This document shows, in pieces, positions 1-59,900 of a stretch of 64,000 nt of DNA. The stretch's first letter is position 1. Each line of letters begins with the position of its first letter. A model generated the notes under the pieces. The model was not told the DNA's origin and searched no databases. It saw only the letters and a program-made list of their open reading frames with translations. Source of the DNA: Escherichia phage AV122; sequence record OR352952.1, one strand, 5' to 3'. The translations under genes were made by a program, and so were the position numbers.

Positions 1-92
1 AGCAATTCATTATCTTTATTCTTTTCAAGAATTGCTTGCTTCTGCTTAGTTGAACCAATAGATGCTATTTCGTTCAGAATTTTAAGAATCAT
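1..92 (-). CDS. 30: DNA ligase (gene 30), N-terminal fragment; rest of gene lies beyond window start
   Basis: Minus-strand ATG at 92-90 followed by codons reading MILKILNEIASIGSTKQKQAILEKNKDNEL, matching my recollection of T4 DNA ligase N-terminus; ATGA overlap with stop of upstream ORF. Confidence 0.8.
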   Translation of the reverse strand, partial: MILKILNEIASIGSTKQKQAILEKNKDNEL

Positions 93-358
93 TGTTCATC
101 CTTTAGAGTTTGGTTTACAGCTCTATTATAAATCAATTCATCATTAAGCTCAGTCAAAGACCTGTGGTACGTTGTTCTAACTTTATTTCCTTGCATCCAG
201 TGCTTGACGTAAATGAAACCTTGCTCTACACATTTTTTAAAAATTCGTTCGTCTTTTTGAGCTCGGAATTCTGGATTGCATCTAAAAAATTGATTTACGT
301 GACCGTAATCACGTGTAGTATTACCTTCATTTTCATAAATAGTGTGAACGACAAACAT
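89..358 (-). CDS. hypothetical protein (T4 30.1 position)
   Basis: 89-aa ORF, stop overlaps gene 30 start; first of nine ORFs between 30 and rIII as in T4. Confidence 0.6.
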   Translation of the reverse strand: MFVVHTIYENEGNTTRDYGHVNQFFRCNPEFRAQKDERIFKKCVEQGFIYVKHWMQGNKVRTTYHRSLTELNDELIYNRAVNQTLKDEQ

Positions 359-1197
359 TAGAATGCTCCTTGGAAAATATTATCACCACTAGTAGGTCTA
401 TTATACAAATACTCTATGCCACCAGGTTTAATATAGTTCCATGTCTGAAACGGATGTGTCTGATATGGATGATATAGATGATTATAAGGATTAAATCCAG
501 GAGTTCTCCAGGTAGTGTTCCAAGGAAAAGAATCGTTTTTGATCATCTTCTCAATTACATCTTTTATAAATTTTTCACTATCAAAACTTTCTTTATTTTC
601 CTTCGATGGAAAAAGCTTATTCTCTACATCATTCCATGTATAAACTCGCTGTGCAGTTTTTGGAATACTGTCACGCTCTCCTCGAGCCATCCAATAAACT
701 GGAACATTTAATATTTCACTCGCATGATCGCAGTGGTGAGCGAGATCGTCAATATAACAAATTACGTTATATTTCTCTTTTGCCTTTTTGAACAACTCTT
801 CTTTTGAAGAATCATGACCACACATCAATATTTCTGAGAAGGCACCAGGAAAAAGAGCATTCAAATTAAATTGACGATTCAGCAAAGCATCAATAGAATC
901 ACCCAATGCTGTAACAGCTACAAAATTATAATCTTCTTTTAATTTGTTAATTACACACAGGGCATCTTTATATGGAGACAAGTAACGAATAAAATCTGAA
1001 CGATTGTATTTTTCAATTAACTTGACGCCAAGTTCTTCATCACAATTAAAGAGTTTACCAGGAGAAATAAATTTCTCATCTTGGATCATTTTTAAAATAT
1101 GTTCTAACGGAAGATTATATTTCTGAGCAAAATAAGGAAGGCCTGATTGCCAGCTTAAACATACTCCATCAATATCAGTCAAAATAGTAGGCTTCAT
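358..1197 (-). CDS. hypothetical protein with HAD-like hydrolase motifs (T4 30.2 position)
   Basis: 279 aa; N-terminal DIDGV and later YIDD motifs typical of HAD phosphatases; aromatic/Pro-rich C-terminal tail. Confidence 0.65.
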   Translation of the reverse strand: MKPTILTDIDGVCLSWQSGLPYFAQKYNLPLEHILKMIQDEKFISPGKLFNCDEELGVKLIEKYNRSDFIRYLSPYKDALCVINKLKEDYNFVAVTALGDSIDALLNRQFNLNALFPGAFSEILMCGHDSSKEELFKKAKEKYNVICYIDDLAHHCDHASEILNVPVYWMARGERDSIPKTAQRVYTWNDVENKLFPSKENKESFDSEKFIKDVIEKMIKNDSFPWNTTWRTPGFNPYNHLYHPYQTHPFQTWNYIKPGGIEYLYNRPTSGDNIFQGAF

Positions 1198-1658
1198 AGA
1201 GAGTCTCTTAATAGGTTTAACACATCAATAAATTCAGCTTCGGTTAGTATTGTATCATCTTTTGTTAGATCACTAGCCATGCTGTGCTTCAAAACTTTTC
1301 CTTTCGAGGCTTGTAATGCATCACGAAAGCCCTTGTTTTGGATCGCTGCTTCAAAATATGCATTTGTGTATAATTCTTTCCACGCCGGGGAGTATCTTGA
1401 AAACGGAACTCCAAGCCAGAAGAGGGTCCCACGGTCCTGAGCTCTAGCATAAGACCTTCCAGCTTGTTGGGCGGCAAGCCCGGATAACCCAAATATACGA
1501 CGTTGTTGTTCAACATTTTTCACCTTGCATCCTTGGAGGAATCCTTCAAGACCTCCAAATTGAATACCATCCATGACGAAAGGCCATTGGGCGAAATTAC
1601 TTAATGCACATGATGGCCACCTAAAATTGCTTCTAATCTCTAACTCAGACATTTTCAA
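1194..1658 (-). CDS. NADAR/YbiA-like domain protein (T4 30.3 position)
   Basis: 154 aa; motifs LSNFAQWPF and G..F.Q..K resemble YbiA/NADAR family signature. Confidence 0.7.
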   Translation of the reverse strand: MKMSELEIRSNFRWPSCALSNFAQWPFVMDGIQFGGLEGFLQGCKVKNVEQQRRIFGLSGLAAQQAGRSYARAQDRGTLFWLGVPFSRYSPAWKELYTNAYFEAAIQNKGFRDALQASKGKVLKHSMASDLTKDDTILTEAEFIDVLNLLRDSL

Positions 1659-1851
1659 TGCTTATAATTTCAACATCAGCCCAATGACCATAGCAAGGAA
1701 GACGAAATTCAACTGGCCAGTTAGGGTCCTTTTCTAATATAATAGACTTAACTTGTGGTTCTTCATGTTCATCAGTATATGGATTTTTATCTGTTACTTT
1801 ATATGTGACCTTAATGTACTGAATTCCAAAAATCTTATTAATTATATTCAT
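1645..1851 (-). CDS. hypothetical protein
   Basis: 68-aa ORF in operon context, overlaps neighbours by a few nt. Confidence 0.5.
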   Translation of the reverse strand: MNIINKIFGIQYIKVTYKVTDKNPYTDEHEEPQVKSIILEKDPNWPVEFRLPCYGHWADVEIISIENV

Positions 1852-2045
1852 ACTAGTTCCTTTAATCCGTAAATAGGAGATAATTCATCACCCATACGAA
1901 GGTCTTCATTTCCATCTACCCAGGAAACAATATAAGCCTCTTTTATTTGAACACCACTCCATTTAAATGGAGGTAGAACCTTAGAAATTAATCCAGGTAT
2001 ACCAACTCCCTTTAATTCAACAGTTTGACCTAAAAAGAATTTCAT
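1848..2045 (-). CDS. hypothetical protein
   Basis: 65-aa ORF, ATGA-type junctions with neighbours. Confidence 0.5.
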   Translation of the reverse strand: MKFFLGQTVELKGVGIPGLISKVLPPFKWSGVQIKEAYIVSWVDGNEDLRMGDELSPIYGLKELV

Positions 2046-2332
2046 TAGAACCTCATCTGAAAACCGTGCGATTTAACATTACCGCCACCAATATCAGAAA
2101 TGTTAATTTCACTCGCAATTGAAGGGTCAATGTCAATTTCACGATTGAGTTTAGTGATAGCTAAAGTATCGCGCCCATTTACAGTACGAAACTCTAAAGG
2201 ACAAACCACATCAACGTAGTTTTTAATCGATTCACTGGTAGGTTGCAAATGAGCAGGAAGGCCTTTGGGCGCCTTTGAGAAAACCACTTCGCAGAAGTTT
2301 TTACGGGTATCAAAATAAGTAGTCATAAACAT
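2045..2332 (-). CDS. hypothetical protein (start trimmed to ATG after intercistronic hairpin)
   Basis: ORF track start is TTG inside upstream gene; ATG at 2332 has GAGGA SD 7 nt upstream and follows hairpin at 2350-2363. Confidence 0.55.
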   Translation of the reverse strand: MFMTTYFDTRKNFCEVVFSKAPKGLPAHLQPTSESIKNYVDVVCPLEFRTVNGRDTLAITKLNREIDIDPSIASEINISDIGGGNVKSHGFQMRF

Positions 2333-2372
2333 AACATTTTCCTCAGTAAGGGGCCAAAGCCCCTCATTTATT

Positions 2373-2738
2373 TTAAATATCAAATTCGTTAAGAACTACA
2401 TCAAAGATTGCTTCAAGATGCTCAGGTTTAGCTCTGTTACTCAGAATATGACGAATCCAAGTTTTAACCAAAAGCTTGCGATTATCACCATTCCAGCAAG
2501 GATGAGTCCCTAAATCGCGTTGACGAAAATCATCATCCAGAGCGATTTTAAAGTTGGAACCTTCCATTGTGATTGAAACCGTGATGCCATTTTCAAATCG
2601 CATATAAACATAGTTAGGAGTCATATACTGTTCAATTTCGCATACTGAACCATTTTGATGTTTCCAGAGGCAAATAGTATCAATAGAACCTGCAATACCA
2701 TTAGAAACATATTTACGTTCAAAGTTGATGTAGTTCAT
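2373..2738 (-). CDS. hypothetical protein
   Basis: 121-aa ORF in 30.x cluster. Confidence 0.6.
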   Translation of the reverse strand: MNYINFERKYVSNGIAGSIDTICLWKHQNGSVCEIEQYMTPNYVYMRFENGITVSITMEGSNFKIALDDDFRQRDLGTHPCWNGDNRKLLVKTWIRHILSNRAKPEHLEAIFDVVLNEFDI

Positions 2739-2806
2739 TTTTATTCTCCGAGATGTTTAATTGCGGTACAGGTATATAATATCATATCCTGTACCAAAGT
2801 AAACAA

Positions 2807-3139
2807 TTATTTTACTACTTTCCAATGTTGCATGTCAAGTTTACCAACTTTTTTCATCTTCTCAATCAAACGTTCGGCACGTTGGCGAGCTGTAACATAA
2901 TACCATTCACCTAATTCATTTTGTTCAATTTTTCCAACGATTACTGTATTCAATTCATAAATCCAACCAGTAAAGAAATTATGAACTTGAATTGTAAAGG
3001 TGAAATCTGTTCCCATACCTTCTGTTGTTTCTACTTCAATAATATCACCTTCAACTGCCATTAAGAACCACATAGTTTCATCATATTTACCATTGAAGCA
3101 TTTAGTTTTAACTGTAGCGTTCAGATTAATCGTTTTCAT
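2807..3139 (-). CDS. hypothetical protein
   Basis: 110-aa ORF with early promoter at 3167-3196 upstream. Confidence 0.6.
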   Translation of the reverse strand: MKTINLNATVKTKCFNGKYDETMWFLMAVEGDIIEVETTEGMGTDFTFTIQVHNFFTGWIYELNTVIVGKIEQNELGEWYYVTARQRAERLIEKMKKVGKLDMQHWKVVK

Positions 3140-3166
3140 TTTATTCTCCTTTGTTTGTATAAGATA

Positions 3167-3196
3167 ATACTATCACAAAGGAGCTATACTGTAAAC
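3167..3196 (-). promoter_or_regulatory. early promoter (sigma70-type)
   Basis: GTTTACA, 17 nt, TAGTAT on minus strand upstream of ORF ending 3139. Confidence 0.55.
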
Positions 3197-3215
3197 AACT
3201 TTATGCAATCTTTGG

Positions 3216-3244
3216 AAAATAAAAAAGGACTCCCGAAGGAGTCC
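3216..3244 (-). terminator. rho-independent terminator
   Basis: Hairpin GGACUCC-UUCG-GGAGUCC followed by U-run on minus-strand transcript. Confidence 0.55.
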
Positions 3245-3249
3245 TCAAC

Positions 3250-3468
3250 TTATGCTTTCTGCTTACCAAAACGAGAAGCATCATCTCGAAGAACCGCACG
3301 TGCTCGGCGCATGATCTTCTCAACAGTTTGATTGATACGAGAGTTCGACCCACGCTTGTAGCCAGCGCGTTTAGAATCACCAACTTTCTTTTCAACTGCT
3401 TTCTTTGCTTTAACTTGTTTTGCCATTATAAATTCTCTTTTAAATGAAAATGCAGGACTTATTGGCAT
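3250..3468 (-). CDS. small basic protein (alternative ATG at 3426)
   Basis: 72-aa ORF, Lys/Arg-rich; followed by terminator hairpin 3216-3244. Confidence 0.5.
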   Translation of the reverse strand: MPISPAFSFKREFIMAKQVKAKKAVEKKVGDSKRAGYKRGSNSRINQTVEKIMRRARAVLRDDASRFGKQKA

Positions 3469-3714
3469 TGCCTGCGCAAGCCCTCAAGGGGTACTTAGGT
3501 TTTGAATATTTACCGACAGGATAACCATAAACCTCGTCAACATACCACCAAGACTTACACAGATAACACTTTTCTGACGCATGATAGTAACATTCAAGAG
3601 GTACACCATAAAACTGCCGGGGTCTTAAAACTATAATGATTCGCAAATCATTAATCAGACAGTTCGACGGCTCCTCGATTTTAGCTCACACTAAGGCAGT
3701 GAATCTCCAATAAA

Positions 3715-3963
3715 TTACTTCAGTGTTACCACAAAGTGACGAACTGCTTTTCGTGCAGCAGAAGCCAGAGGCTTAGCATATTTAAGTTCATCTTTTTCCT
3801 GAAGCTCAGCAGCTAATGCAGTTTGAGCAGGATTCAGATGTTTGAAATAACGCAGGATTTCAAGAGCTTCGGCTTCAACATCAATAGATGCGCCATAGTT
3901 TTCGTGACCATTATTCCATGCGTTTCGTTGCAGTTCAAGAGCGTGTTGTAATTGTTTAATCAT
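3715..3963 (-). CDS. rIII: rIII lysis-inhibition accessory protein (by size and position)
   Basis: 82 aa, located between 30.x cluster and gene 31 as in T4. Confidence 0.7.
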   Translation of the reverse strand: MIKQLQHALELQRNAWNNGHENYGASIDVEAEALEILRYFKHLNPAQTALAAELQEKDELKYAKPLASAARKAVRHFVVTLK

Positions 3964-4110
3964 TTAAAAATTCTCGTTAGAGATTAAAACTCGGTAGTCA
4001 CGTTCTTCTGAATTTCATCTTCTTTCGACAGATCTCTCAGTTGTAGACTACCACATAGAATTGTTCGGTTAACTTATTATTCCGACACCCAATTCATATT
4101 ATTATTTATA

Positions 4111-4446
4111 TCACTTATAAAGACACGGAATAGCTTTATAGTGACAGGTAACGAATTTTTGCTTAATTTCTTTTGGCTGCTTAAGACCCAGAGCTACAAA
4201 AGGATGTGGAACGTTTCGAATTTGACCAACTGGAAGAGAAGTCAAATCACCAACTTCACAGAAACCTTCAGGAACATCAGGACCAACAGAGTGAATTACA
4301 CACAGTTCAGGAACTTCACCTTGAACACGTTTACCGATAATAAGTCCTGATTCTGTAACTTCTTCATCACCGGCTTGTGCAGGTTCAGAAACTAAAATAA
4401 CATATTCACCGACAGCACGAATTGGTAGCTGTTGTACTTCAGACAT
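4111..4446 (-). CDS. 31: gp31 co-chaperonin (GroES-like)
   Basis: 111 aa; sequence [19 protein letters not shown] recognised as T4 gp31. Confidence 0.9.
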
Positions 4447-4502
4447 CGTTTTTCCTTTTTGTTAACAGATGAATTAATAATAACAAATAATTCTTAAAGC
4501 AT

Positions 4503-4811
4503 TTATTTACCAATAAATTGGAGTAAATGCTCAACTTTCATACCATTAACAGAAATCAATTTGTCAATAGAAAAACCTCGCCACTCGCCAAGCTCAACAT
4601 CAAATACTGGAATCATGTCAGTAGATTCTTTCCGAGTAGATTCAGTCAATTTACCGGTTTGCATGGTTGGCATAAAGTCTGCATCACGAGTACCTTTCAT
4701 AGTACGAATAGTACCATCAGACTTTTCAAAAACTATGTTTGAAACACCCATGGACAATTTAGTTTTCAAAATTTCACGAACTGCTACTTTCTGCTCAGTT
4801 GTCAGTTTCAT
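4503..4811 (-). CDS. hypothetical protein (31.1 position)
   Basis: 102-aa ORF. Confidence 0.6.
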   Translation of the reverse strand: MKLTTEQKVAVREILKTKLSMGVSNIVFEKSDGTIRTMKGTRDADFMPTMQTGKLTESTRKESTDMIPVFDVELGEWRGFSIDKLISVNGMKVEHLLQFIGK

Positions 4812-5048
4812 TTATTTACCTATCACAGTTTTAATATGAGTTGTTCCACGTTCTTTAAGGGTGGAAAGTAATTTTTGGCATTTTTCTAAATCAGATTTCC
4901 AACTATATGGTCTATCAATACTAGTCCAATCAGTTTTATAATACTGTTTCCATTTAGAGAAAAAATATTTCTTATACTCTACAGCAAATGAAATGTTCTC
5001 GTTAGAATAAGAACTAATTGCTGTGAGCTTTACCAAACGAAATTTCAT
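4812..5048 (-). CDS. hypothetical protein (31.2 position)
   Basis: 78-aa ORF abutting cd. Confidence 0.55.
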   Translation of the reverse strand: MKFRLVKLTAISSYSNENISFAVEYKKYFFSKWKQYYKTDWTSIDRPYSWKSDLEKCQKLLSTLKERGTTHIKTVIGK

Positions 5049-52829: not shown

Positions 52830-53432
52830 TTATAGATTAAATCCTTCAAAATCAAGAGTATAGATAGTGTATGTTGAATACTTTTTGTACTCATATCTAT
52901 CTGCAATTCTAAATACACTTCCAGCTGGTATCATTACTTCTTGTTCATCTGAAACTAATTCCATATTACGATAACGATGACTATCCGGAAACTTAAAGTT
53001 TGGATTGTATTCTTTACAGCGTAGAGCTTTTATAGCATACTCCTGGAAATTGAATACCATAGGAGCTTTGAATTCAAAAATAACCTGTGTGTTATACTCT
53101 AAACCGGAAGCAAAATGTAGAGCTATATTTTTATCATATGAAGCTGATACGACTTTATCAAATGTAATAATATCAATTCCTTGATTTAATACTTGCTTAG
53201 TCTCAGCTGGAACACCTCTCCAAAGAGGTTTATCGTTTGGAACCAAACGAGATTTGATTATTTCATTTAACCAAGTATGGTCATCTGGCTTATTAGTAAT
53301 ACAATGAATTAAAAGTTCAATTTCAGATAAATTAAACCCTTCAGAAAGTAATTCTTCACGAATAGAAGCACGCACCGATGCATCCATTGATTTTATTTTA
53401 AAATCTTTTAGTTGCATTACTGAGTATTTCAT
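52830..53432 (-). CDS. modA: ADP-ribosyltransferase ModA
   Basis: 200 aa; R (LWRG), STS-like (SAS) and EQE catalytic motifs. Confidence 0.8.
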   Translation of the reverse strand: MKYSVMQLKDFKIKSMDASVRASIREELLSEGFNLSEIELLIHCITNKPDDHTWLNEIIKSRLVPNDKPLWRGVPAETKQVLNQGIDIITFDKVVSASYDKNIALHFASGLEYNTQVIFEFKAPMVFNFQEYAIKALRCKEYNPNFKFPDSHRYRNMELVSDEQEVMIPAGSVFRIADRYEYKKYSTYTIYTLDFEGFNL

Positions 53433-54052
53433 TCAACTACCTCAATATCATAAACTTTAAATGTTCCAAATGAATCGTGTAATTTTTCTTTTGAAATAGA
53501 AGTTATTCTATACTTTCCAATTGGAATCATCCATTCTTGTTCATGTACAATCATCATTAAGTTATCAGTACGCTCTGAATCTAATCCATCAGTGTCTTCA
53601 TACGTGTACTTAAACTCAGTATTAGGAGAAGAAAGTATAATATCGCTGATATGGTCAGAGTAATTAAAAGCTTTATTAGTTTTTAAGCGAAGTATTATTT
53701 TAGTAAAATATTCAGCGTAAGAAAAAGAACACGCTGTATGCAAACTAGTAGTAAATGAATCTACCCTGTTCGTTGAAAACACTTCTCCAACTTGTAAATC
53801 TTTAATGAGTTCTTTTGTCGATTTTGATATACCACGATATAACTGATAAGGCGATTTAGTTAAATGCTTTTTAATGATTTTATTCAACTGTCTGTGAAGA
53901 GCTTCATTCTTTTTGGCTTCCATACATTGCCAAAGAACAGACTGCTCAAAGTCAGTAAATTTTTCACAGACTTTTTTATACATATCATATTGAAAATCAA
54001 CGCTTTCAGCTTTTATAGATAACTGTTCAACATCTGCAGGATTAATAATCAT
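53429..54052 (-). CDS. modB: ADP-ribosyltransferase ModB
   Basis: 207 aa; LYRG, FST, EQEWMIP motifs; tandem paralog of modA. Confidence 0.8.
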   Translation of the reverse strand: MIINPADVEQLSIKAESVDFQYDMYKKVCEKFTDFEQSVLWQCMEAKKNEALHRQLNKIIKKHLTKSPYQLYRGISKSTKELIKDLQVGEVFSTNRVDSFTTSLHTACSFSYAEYFTKIILRLKTNKAFNYSDHISDIILSSPNTEFKYTYEDTDGLDSERTDNLMMIVHEQEWMIPIGKYRITSISKEKLHDSFGTFKVYDIEVVE

Positions 54053-58914: not shown

Positions 58915-58960
58915 ATTAACCTCTATTCATAAAAGCATTAAAAATTTGGTCATCAATAGA
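58912..58960 (-). repeat. 49-nt repeat copy A at 3' end of 118-aa ORF
   Basis: Matches 59270-59318 with 3 mismatches. Confidence 0.75.
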
Positions 58961-59272
58961 TGGCGCAGTAATATTTTCTGCATCATTTAGCAAATCATTA
59001 ATTTCATCAGATAGCATAACACATGTACCTTTATTTCCTGTAATTGTTACTGCACAATTACGAACGTTTTCTTTATCAAATTTTAGGTTAATATTTTCGT
59101 AGTGAAAATCCTTTAATGCCGAATATATCTTTAAAATGAAATTGTCTTTTACTACAATAAACCCAACCTCACTATTAAAACGCGGTTCATGGAAACTGTA
59201 ATAAACCTTTTCATCTATAAAATCGTATGAAATTTTTTCCATTTTTAAATATGAAAATTCAGAACTATACAT
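58916..59272 (-). CDS. hypothetical protein, truncated paralog of next ORF
   Basis: 118 aa; C-terminus SIDDQIFNAFMNRG shared with 208-aa ORF. Confidence 0.55.
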   Translation of the reverse strand: MYSSEFSYLKMEKISYDFIDEKVYYSFHEPRFNSEVGFIVVKDNFILKIYSALKDFHYENINLKFDKENVRNCAVTITGNKGTCVMLSDEINDLLNDAENITAPSIDDQIFNAFMNRG

Positions 59273-59318
59273 ATTAACCTTTATTCATAAAAGCATTAAA
59301 AATTTGATCGTCAATAGA
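59270..59318 (-). repeat. 49-nt repeat copy B at 3' end of 208-aa ORF
   Basis: Matches 58912-58960 with 3 mismatches. Confidence 0.75.
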
Positions 59319-59900
59319 AACTTTTACTTTAGGCTGTTCTTCAAACGGTAATTCATATCCACATATTACAATTTTGTGATCGATACCAAAATACACAGAA
59401 GCAATATTATTAATATTATTTTCAGTGAAATCTAAATCAACATCAATATCTTTTTGACCACAGCCCAAAGGATAAATAATGCGAGTAATTCGATTATCTT
59501 TAACAAATATTCCACCGACATACTCTGTGCTGCGTTTAAAGTCTACACGCCGACGAAATGAAAAATATTCAGGCTCTTTATGAGCTCGGCTCATAGGACA
59601 CAACGAGTAACTAGAATAAGAGATGTCAAATCCTACACCTTCGATATGAGCCAAAGTGTCATGATTAAACCAATTATAATCGTACGCCAAATCCATTAGA
59701 TTATAATATGTAAAAGGCACCGGATTAACATCATTAGTCACAAGCATGTAATTAGCAACTGCTATAATTTCATTGTTTTTAACGAATACAAACCGTGATT
59801 GATGCGAATGACCTGGACCCGCGTTTTCACGATTAATGATATAACACTGGGCACCTTTATATTTGTATGTATCTTTGCACTTGTGCATTTGATAGAGCAT
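59274..59900 (-). CDS. hypothetical protein (T4 61.2 position)
   Basis: 208 aa; C-terminus SIDDQIFNAFMNKG. Confidence 0.6.
   Translation of the reverse strand: MLYQMHKCKDTYKYKGAQCYIINRENAGPGHSHQSRFVFVKNNEIIAVANYMLVTNDVNPVPFTYYNLMDLAYDYNWFNHDTLAHIEGVGFDISYSSYSLCPMSRAHKEPEYFSFRRRVDFKRSTEYVGGIFVKDNRITRIIYPLGCGQKDIDVDLDFTENNINNIASVYFGIDHKIVICGYELPFEEQPKVKVSIDDQIFNAFMNKG

Follow-up and report, generated by a model that had tools for sequence, protein, structure and literature searches.

The stretch of Escherichia phage AV122 that was analysed (sequence record OR352952.1), hereafter called the window, comprises 64,000 nucleotides. The ORF listing of the window contains an uninterrupted reading frame at 1194..1658 on the minus strand, which begins with a TTG codon and has a length of 154 amino acids. 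In the T4 annotation, gene 30.3 starts at an ATG that lies two codons downstream of this TTG, which corresponds to position 1652 in the window and gives a product of 152 amino acids. Given that the published numbering of the residues E36 and K43 is compatible with the ATG start only, the coding sequence of adfN (gene 30.3) is placed at 1194..1652 on the minus strand (152 amino acids and the stop codon), and from its sequence the product is predicted to be a NADAR-fold DNA guanine-ADP-ribosylglycohydrolase. The reading frame on which the original prediction was built is real and uninterrupted, whereas the extent of 154 amino acids does not stand, because the mechanical ORF call includes two extra codons, TTG AAA (1653..1658, minus strand), which lie upstream of the T4-annotated ATG and are probably left untranslated.

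The sequence and the ORF coordinates show that adfN overlaps both of its neighbors on the minus strand. The start codon of adfN and the stop codon of gene 30.4 are contained in the 8 nt overlap ATGTCTGA (1645..1652), while the stop codon of adfN and the start codon of gene 30.2 are joined in ATGA (1194..1197). The ATGTCTGA overlap between 30.4 and adfN suggests translational coupling inside one early operon. A promoter and terminator scan of positions 1..5000 gave 17 promoter-like sites, versus 17.2 expected from shuffled sequences. Within adfN there is also an out-of-frame internal ORF of 75 amino acids, 30.3' (1289..1516, minus strand), with 97% identity to its T4 counterpart, which the T4 annotation describes as 'internal translation in a different reading frame'. 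The 30.3' frame is open in the window, in T4 and in Bas43. It was considered as a real overlapping gene and rejected, given that its ATG is changed to ATC in Dhakavirus PSD2002 and that the frame contains stops in Esco_phi_B-01; 30.3' is not conserved across a clade of approximately 86% identity.

Over its first 4 kb, the window shares 97.5-98% identity with many genomes of Tequatrovirus (T4-like phages). When the T4 proteins were compared with the window by tblastn, the T4 order 30, 30.1, 30.2, 30.3, 30.4, 30.5, 30.6, 30.7 was recovered at 96-100% identity, with the homologues of 30.2 and 30.4 that flank adfN showing 96-97% identity to T4, which bears out the placement of the gene at the 30.3 position. 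The adfN product is identical to T4 gp30.3 (NP_049816.1) in 150 of its 152 residues, the two differences being I125M and G128D, and it matches the protein of phage TadeuszReichstein (BASEL Bas43) at 100% identity. The gene is, therefore, the already characterised T4 gene 30.3 (adfN), the function of which has been published previously.

Homologues of gp30.3 were found by tblastn in 1510 phage records, with approximately 730 homologues having at least 60% identity, chiefly from Escherichia and Shigella phages, and approximately 780 falling below 60%, in phages of Klebsiella, Aeromonas, Acinetobacter, Vibrio, Rhizobium, Ralstonia and others. In the Karamvirus Klebsiella phage KaAlpha, the gp30.3 homologue (3001..3450 of the locus) is located within or beside a tRNA cluster and not by the DNA ligase gene, and in the Ackermannviridae Ralstonia phage RSP15 it is also found within or beside a tRNA gene cluster, away from DNA ligase. 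The Aeromonas Karamvirus phage PS49 has the same order of protein genes as KaAlpha, and its record annotates no tRNA genes. The gp30.3 gene has been relocated during the history of the large myoviruses.

The window protein matches the Pfam family PF08010 (Phage_30_3) over positions 1-138 of the 138 of the profile (E=2.7e-70; 235 bits versus a cut-off of 36), and this match together with the tblastn homologues in 1510 phage records means that the adfN ORF is not a product of chance. The original prediction had assigned the protein to the NADAR/YbiA-like enzymes and had proposed a search against PF08719 (NADAR) as a check, with the absence of a hit to be taken as refutation. No match of the window protein to PF08719 was obtained, even at E ≤ 10, and this outcome, if relied upon, would have led to the wrong rejection of the NADAR assignment, given that PF08719 misses AdfN because in Pfam gp30.3 has a family of its own, PF08010. 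The search of NCBIfam with AdfN was also empty, single-sequence phmmer of AdfN against the PDB found no NADAR and returned a chance match alone (E 0.66), and in PHROGs the protein belongs to phrog_652, 'unknown function'. Nonetheless, these empty library searches reflect the boundaries between families and, as the tests of profile and fold made clear, do not speak against homology.

These tests were based on an alignment of 85 full-length gp30.3 homologues (alignment A1). Thirteen of the 85 homologues match PF08719 individually, with a best E of 1.5e-7. When the profile of A1 was searched against the PDB with hmmsearch, the top match was E. coli YbiA (E 0.013), and the alignment of A1 to YbiA with hhalign reached a probability of 93.9% and an E of 1.6e-7 over 90 columns, a span that covers the SNFA motif, the helix with the Glu and Lys residues, and the last strand. 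The AlphaFold2 model obtained from A1 is confident (pLDDT 92.6, pTM 0.88), and the fold comparison, which included Foldseek, found in it the NADAR fold, that is, a helical core flanked by small beta-hairpins. The second check that had been proposed, by structure prediction, thus agrees with the hhalign result and with the conservation of E36, K43 and H123 described below in upholding the NADAR/YbiA-like assignment. More precisely, AdfN belongs to the phage clade of the NADAR superfamily, and it is a member of neither the YbiA family nor the DarG1 family. A filter based on the lack of a Pfam NADAR match would overlook the whole gp30.3 clade, and genome scans for ADP-ribose erasers should therefore also draw on PF08010, fold comparison or profile-profile comparison.

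Two sequence motifs had been put forward for this protein. LSNFAQWPF is present exactly, as residues 17-25 in T4 numbering, whereas the second, G..F.Q..K, does not occur literally: the sequence at residues 35-43 reads L-E-G-F-L-Q-G-C-K, so that the actual pattern is E-x-F-x-Q-x-x-K, and it aligns with S-E-H-Y-F-Q-A-Q-K of YbiA. The catalytic Glu36 (codon GAA, 1545..1547, minus strand) is invariant in the 85 homologues, is aligned to the Glu of this YbiA segment and is equivalent to E43 of PnNADAR and E88 of E. coli C7 NADAR. The catalytic Lys43 (codon AAG, 1524..1526, minus strand) is conserved in at least 90% of the homologues, is aligned to the YbiA Lys and is equivalent to PnNADAR K50 and C7 NADAR K95; the spacing of seven residues between E36 and K43 is the same as that of E43/K50 and E88/K95 in these two enzymes. 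In PnNADAR and C7 NADAR, hydrolysis requires the Glu and Lys, which make contacts with the distal ribose and the phosphate, with K95 of C7 NADAR coordinating phosphate (PMC11543638).

The third position is His123 (codon CAC, 1284..1286, minus strand), a last-strand residue that is the hallmark of the phage NADAR clade. It is invariant in 85 of 85 homologues and lies in the predicted strand 120-123; in the hhalign alignment K122 stands opposite V124 of YbiA, which places H123 opposite YbiA E125. This agrees with the published distribution of the third catalytic residue, which is His in the phage clade, Glu in YbiA and Asp in DarG1 (PMC11125620; PMC11543638).

The function of T4 AdfN is well documented. 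With RB69 recombinants, the resistance of T2 and T4 to DarTG1 was traced to the 3' portion of gene 30.3 (Johannesman et al., Nat Commun 2025, PMC11825919). RB69 itself is sensitive to DarTG1, and in its allele an inserted T at nt 411 costs the protein the last 15 residues (PMC11825919). T4 and T2 that lack adfN no longer form plaques on DarTG1 cells, and their plaquing on DarTG2 cells is unaffected, while plasmid-expressed adfN(T4) rescues RB69 (PMC11825919). [quoted passage not shown] In a T4 transposon screen, insertions in 30.3 were lost specifically on DarTG1 hosts (bioRxiv 10.1101/2025.11.20.689424), and published T4 data show the gene to be non-essential on plain K-12.

With regard to the chemistry, purified AdfN frees DarT1-modified DNA of ADP-ribose and the inactive control E36A fails to do so, while the variants E36A and K43A and the protein truncated at its C-terminus each have partial or reduced activity when the rescue of RB69 is assayed (PMC11825919). 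No interaction between AdfN and DarT1 was detected by two-hybrid (PMC11825919). In vitro, gp30.3 hydrolyses guanosine-ADPr and does not hydrolyse thymidine-ADPr (PMC11125620, Toxins 2024); G-ADPr in RNA is also a substrate of the T4 NADAR, which is slower there than DarG1 (PMC11833690). The removal of guanine-linked ADP-ribose from DNA, which the original prediction had raised for this family, is therefore published for a protein 99% identical to that of the window (PMC11125620; PMC11825919; 10.1101/2025.11.20.689424), and its further proposal that the enzyme could counter DarT-type defence holds for DarTG1, which modifies guanine, and fails for DarTG2, which modifies thymine (PMC11825919). 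The methods of the Toxins 2024 study give the T4 NADAR construct as 'gp30.3; residues 1-208', versus the 152 amino acids of T4 gp30.3 (PMC11125620). The construct may include tags or may derive from another phage source, which bears on the comparison of in vitro results.

The allele of the window is intact in the region that is lost in RB69. The C-terminal helix corresponds to residues 138-152 (1197..1241, minus strand), with the model showing a helix at 138-151; residues 129-152 are identical to T4, and the protein has its full 152 amino acids, without a frameshift of the RB69 type at nt 411. The substitutions I125M and G128D are found just beyond the last strand, in a stretch (residues 121-130) that is modelled with lower confidence (mean pLDDT 78), and the family consensus has no majority residue at position 125 or 128. 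Given that both substitutions fall on positions without a majority residue and that the C-terminal helix is intact, the allele should be active. We infer that I125M and G128D are of no consequence for the AdfN of this phage, given that Bas43, which has the identical protein, is among the BASEL Tevenvirinae Bas35-Bas47, all of which are reported to be resistant to DarTG1.

In several T4-like genomes the gp30.3 entries are just 86-109 amino acids long, or are fused to PF11097, PF06019 or PF06919; examples of short or fused entries are SV76, UGJNEcP4, vB_Eco_NR1 and RPN226. Together with the RB69 frameshift, these entries suggest several natural isolates with a disrupted or mis-called adfN, and phages with a disrupted adfN are predicted to be sensitive to DarTG1.

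The reading that best accounts for these data, to which we assign a probability of about 95%, is that adfN of this T4-like Tequatrovirus encodes a minimal single-domain N-glycosidase of the NADAR fold that acts as an orphan antitoxin and erases the guanine-ADPr marks made by DarT1. Upon infection of a host carrying DarTG1, the DarT1 toxin would ADP-ribosylate guanines of the phage DNA and block its replication. AdfN, as an 'orphan antitoxin', would then cleave the bond between guanine and ADP-ribose, giving clean DNA on which replication could resume, and would in this way counter DarT1 enzymatically and not by binding to it. Catalysis is expected to involve two residues of the conserved E-x-F-x-Q-x-x-K helix, Glu36 and Lys43, together with His123 of the last strand, with full activity presumably depending on the C-terminal helix. 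The identity with T4 AdfN, the fold, the catalytic residues and the intactness of the allele were observed in this analysis. Guanine-ADPr hydrolysis and the role against DarTG1 would be shared by this phage on the strength of the 99% sequence identity to the T4 protein. The presence of an intact adfN, which is not RB69-like, predicts that this phage is resistant to DarTG1. The discovery value of the locus is small, given that papers from 2023-2025 already describe the fold, the chemistry and the anti-defence role of a protein to which its product is identical except at 2 of 152 residues.

Hydrolase activity alone is not the full explanation of the function in vivo, because T4 AdfN does not neutralise DarT1 toxicity in uninfected E. 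coli (PMC11125620; PMC11825919) and rescues phages other than T-even ones weakly, with T5 and Bas25 barely rescued (PMC11825919). The DNA modifications of T4 are not the cause of this dependence, and the authors suggest a further T-even factor (PMC11825919). A T-even factor or context is thus needed for the full function of T4-type AdfN. The product of gene 30.2 (358..1197, minus strand, 279 amino acids), which begins MKPTILTDIDGVCLSW and whose ATG is the one that overlaps the adfN stop codon, could be such a partner, for example by processing the released ADP-ribose or by recruiting AdfN to replicating DNA. Its DIDGV (DxDGV) motif resembles motif I of HAD phosphatases, and its homologues have been labelled HAD-like (IPR023214) by other annotators; gp30.2 belongs to PHROG 420, 'unknown function', and sequence searches of Pfam, NCBIfam and the PDB (phmmer) with it returned nothing. 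The adjacency of 30.2 and 30.3 is kept in Tequatrovirus, Dhakavirus and the Acinetobacter phage Melin, and two Karamvirus phages, Schizotequatrovirus, one Rhizobium phage and one Ralstonia phage lack it; a tblastn search of six distant gp30.3 loci with gp30.2 was positive for Melin alone. Moreover, the text of the T4 transposon screen names 30.3 alone as DarTG1-conditional (10.1101/2025.11.20.689424). This patchy adjacency and the text of the screen are appreciable evidence against the partnership, and a requirement of AdfN for the translationally coupled gp30.2 is unlikely, with a small chance of being correct.

Other substrates have to be weighed against the erasure of DarT1 marks. ModA and ModB are ADP-ribosyltransferases with host proteins as targets, and both are encoded in the window (modA at 52833..53432 and modB at 53432..54052, minus strand, by tblastn), as the original prediction had pointed out in suggesting that the phage pairs writers with an eraser. 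In T4 and Bas43, Alt is encoded just upstream of the position that matches the start of the window. AdfN could, on these grounds, erase or proofread the phage's own Alt, ModA and ModB marks, whether these are protein ADP-ribosylation, RNAylation by ModB or collateral ADP-ribosylation of guanine. The presence of the two genes stands, but the pairing is unsupported, given that it comes down to co-presence with no positional or published functional link: adfN is 51 kb away from modA and modB, and in other clades the gp30.3 homologue is found in unrelated surroundings (in a tRNA cluster or beside a helicase). The published NADAR substrates are all base-linked ADPr (guanine, in DNA or RNA), thymidine-ADPr is not cleaved, and the available part of PMC12945103 groups the T4 NADAR among enzymes inactive on cytidine-ADPr. 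The phenotype of the adfN deletion is confined to DarTG1 hosts, and the gene is dispensable on plain K-12. With base-linked substrates and a DarTG1-conditional phenotype, a role of AdfN in erasing the phage's own marks is unsupported and very improbable.

The NADAR YbiA cleaves N-glycosidic bonds in small molecules (as cited in PMC11543638), and this precedent raises the question of whether the main substrate of AdfN could be a soluble ADPr derivative of low molecular weight, such as an immune signal, a toxin or a by-product of RNA repair. A substrate of this kind was predicted from context for phage NADARs in general by Iyer et al. 2022 (PMC9503650), and its cleavage could be an extra activity beside the known one. 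As the main activity it is, however, about as improbable as a role on the phage's own marks, because direct biochemistry and genetics point to guanine-ADPr in DNA and to DarTG1, at the catalytic position that tells the clades apart the gp30.3 clade has His where the YbiA family has Glu, and the published tree puts the gp30.3 clade nearest to the NADARs of the DarG1 type. The probability is close to negligible that adfN is an auxiliary metabolic gene for a housekeeping N-glycosidase of the YbiA type acting on reactive intermediates of the riboflavin pathway: the family-defining E125 of YbiA is His here and in 85 of 85 homologues, no riboflavin genes are found nearby, and the published phenotypes that were found all concern DarTG1.

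When compared with known systems, the closest is T4 gp30.3, which has the same length, the same position between 30.2 and 30.4, the residues E36, K43 and H123 and an intact C-terminal helix; the two substitutions that separate the window protein from it, I125M and G128D, are both shared with the DarTG1-resistant Bas43. E. coli YbiA (PDB 2B3W) has approximately 20% identity to AdfN, with E125 in place of H123, and is chromosomal (ybiA/dinG/ybiB region) with another physiological role, whereas AdfN is phage-borne. The NADAR of Phytophthora nicotianae (PDB 8BAU, ADP-ribose complex) is a eukaryotic protein of 189 amino acids with 19% identity and the Glu of the YbiA type.

Two other anti-DarT factors of T4 reach a similar end by different means. 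AdfM (T4 Tk.4) and the DarG2-like macrodomains of phages are analogous enzymatic erasers, but have the macrodomain fold and are directed at DarTG2, which modifies thymidine. AdfA (T4 gp61.2) is also an anti-DarT factor, the active R164H form of which, from RB69, associates directly with DarT1 and does not act as a hydrolase. The window contains an adfA (T4 61.2) homologue at 59274..59900 (minus strand) with 94% identity. Immediately downstream of 61.2 and before 61.1 there is an extra ORF of 118 amino acids (58916..59272, minus strand) that T4 does not have; its C-terminal half resembles that of AdfA at 35% identity (E 1e-6), and its last residues, SIDDQIFNAFMNRG, are the exact C-terminus of T4 gp61.2. 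From its sequence, this ORF looks like a tandem partial paralogue of adfA.

DarG1, represented by E. coli C7 NADAR and the Geobacter lovleyi NADAR (PDB 8BAT), is paired with DarT1, while AdfN is an orphan: its neighbors are 30.2 and 30.4, with no darT or ART domain among them, in line with published accounts. The third catalytic residue of DarG1 is Asp (PMC11543638), in contrast to His123 of AdfN, and DarG1 has an electropositive channel formed from extra N-terminal elements that AdfN does not have (PMC12945103). T4 AdfN is no substitute for DarG1 in uninfected cells. AdfN(Bas32), from a T5-like phage, and AdfN(Bas60), from a phage of the Vequintavirinae, are, like T4 AdfN, phage-encoded, directed against DarTG1 and specific for guanine, but they are found on other branches of the NADAR tree and were acquired independently of T4-type AdfN. 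Both neutralise DarT1 without infection and rescue unrelated phages, whereas the T4-type enzyme, to which the AdfN of this phage belongs, works fully in T-even infection only.
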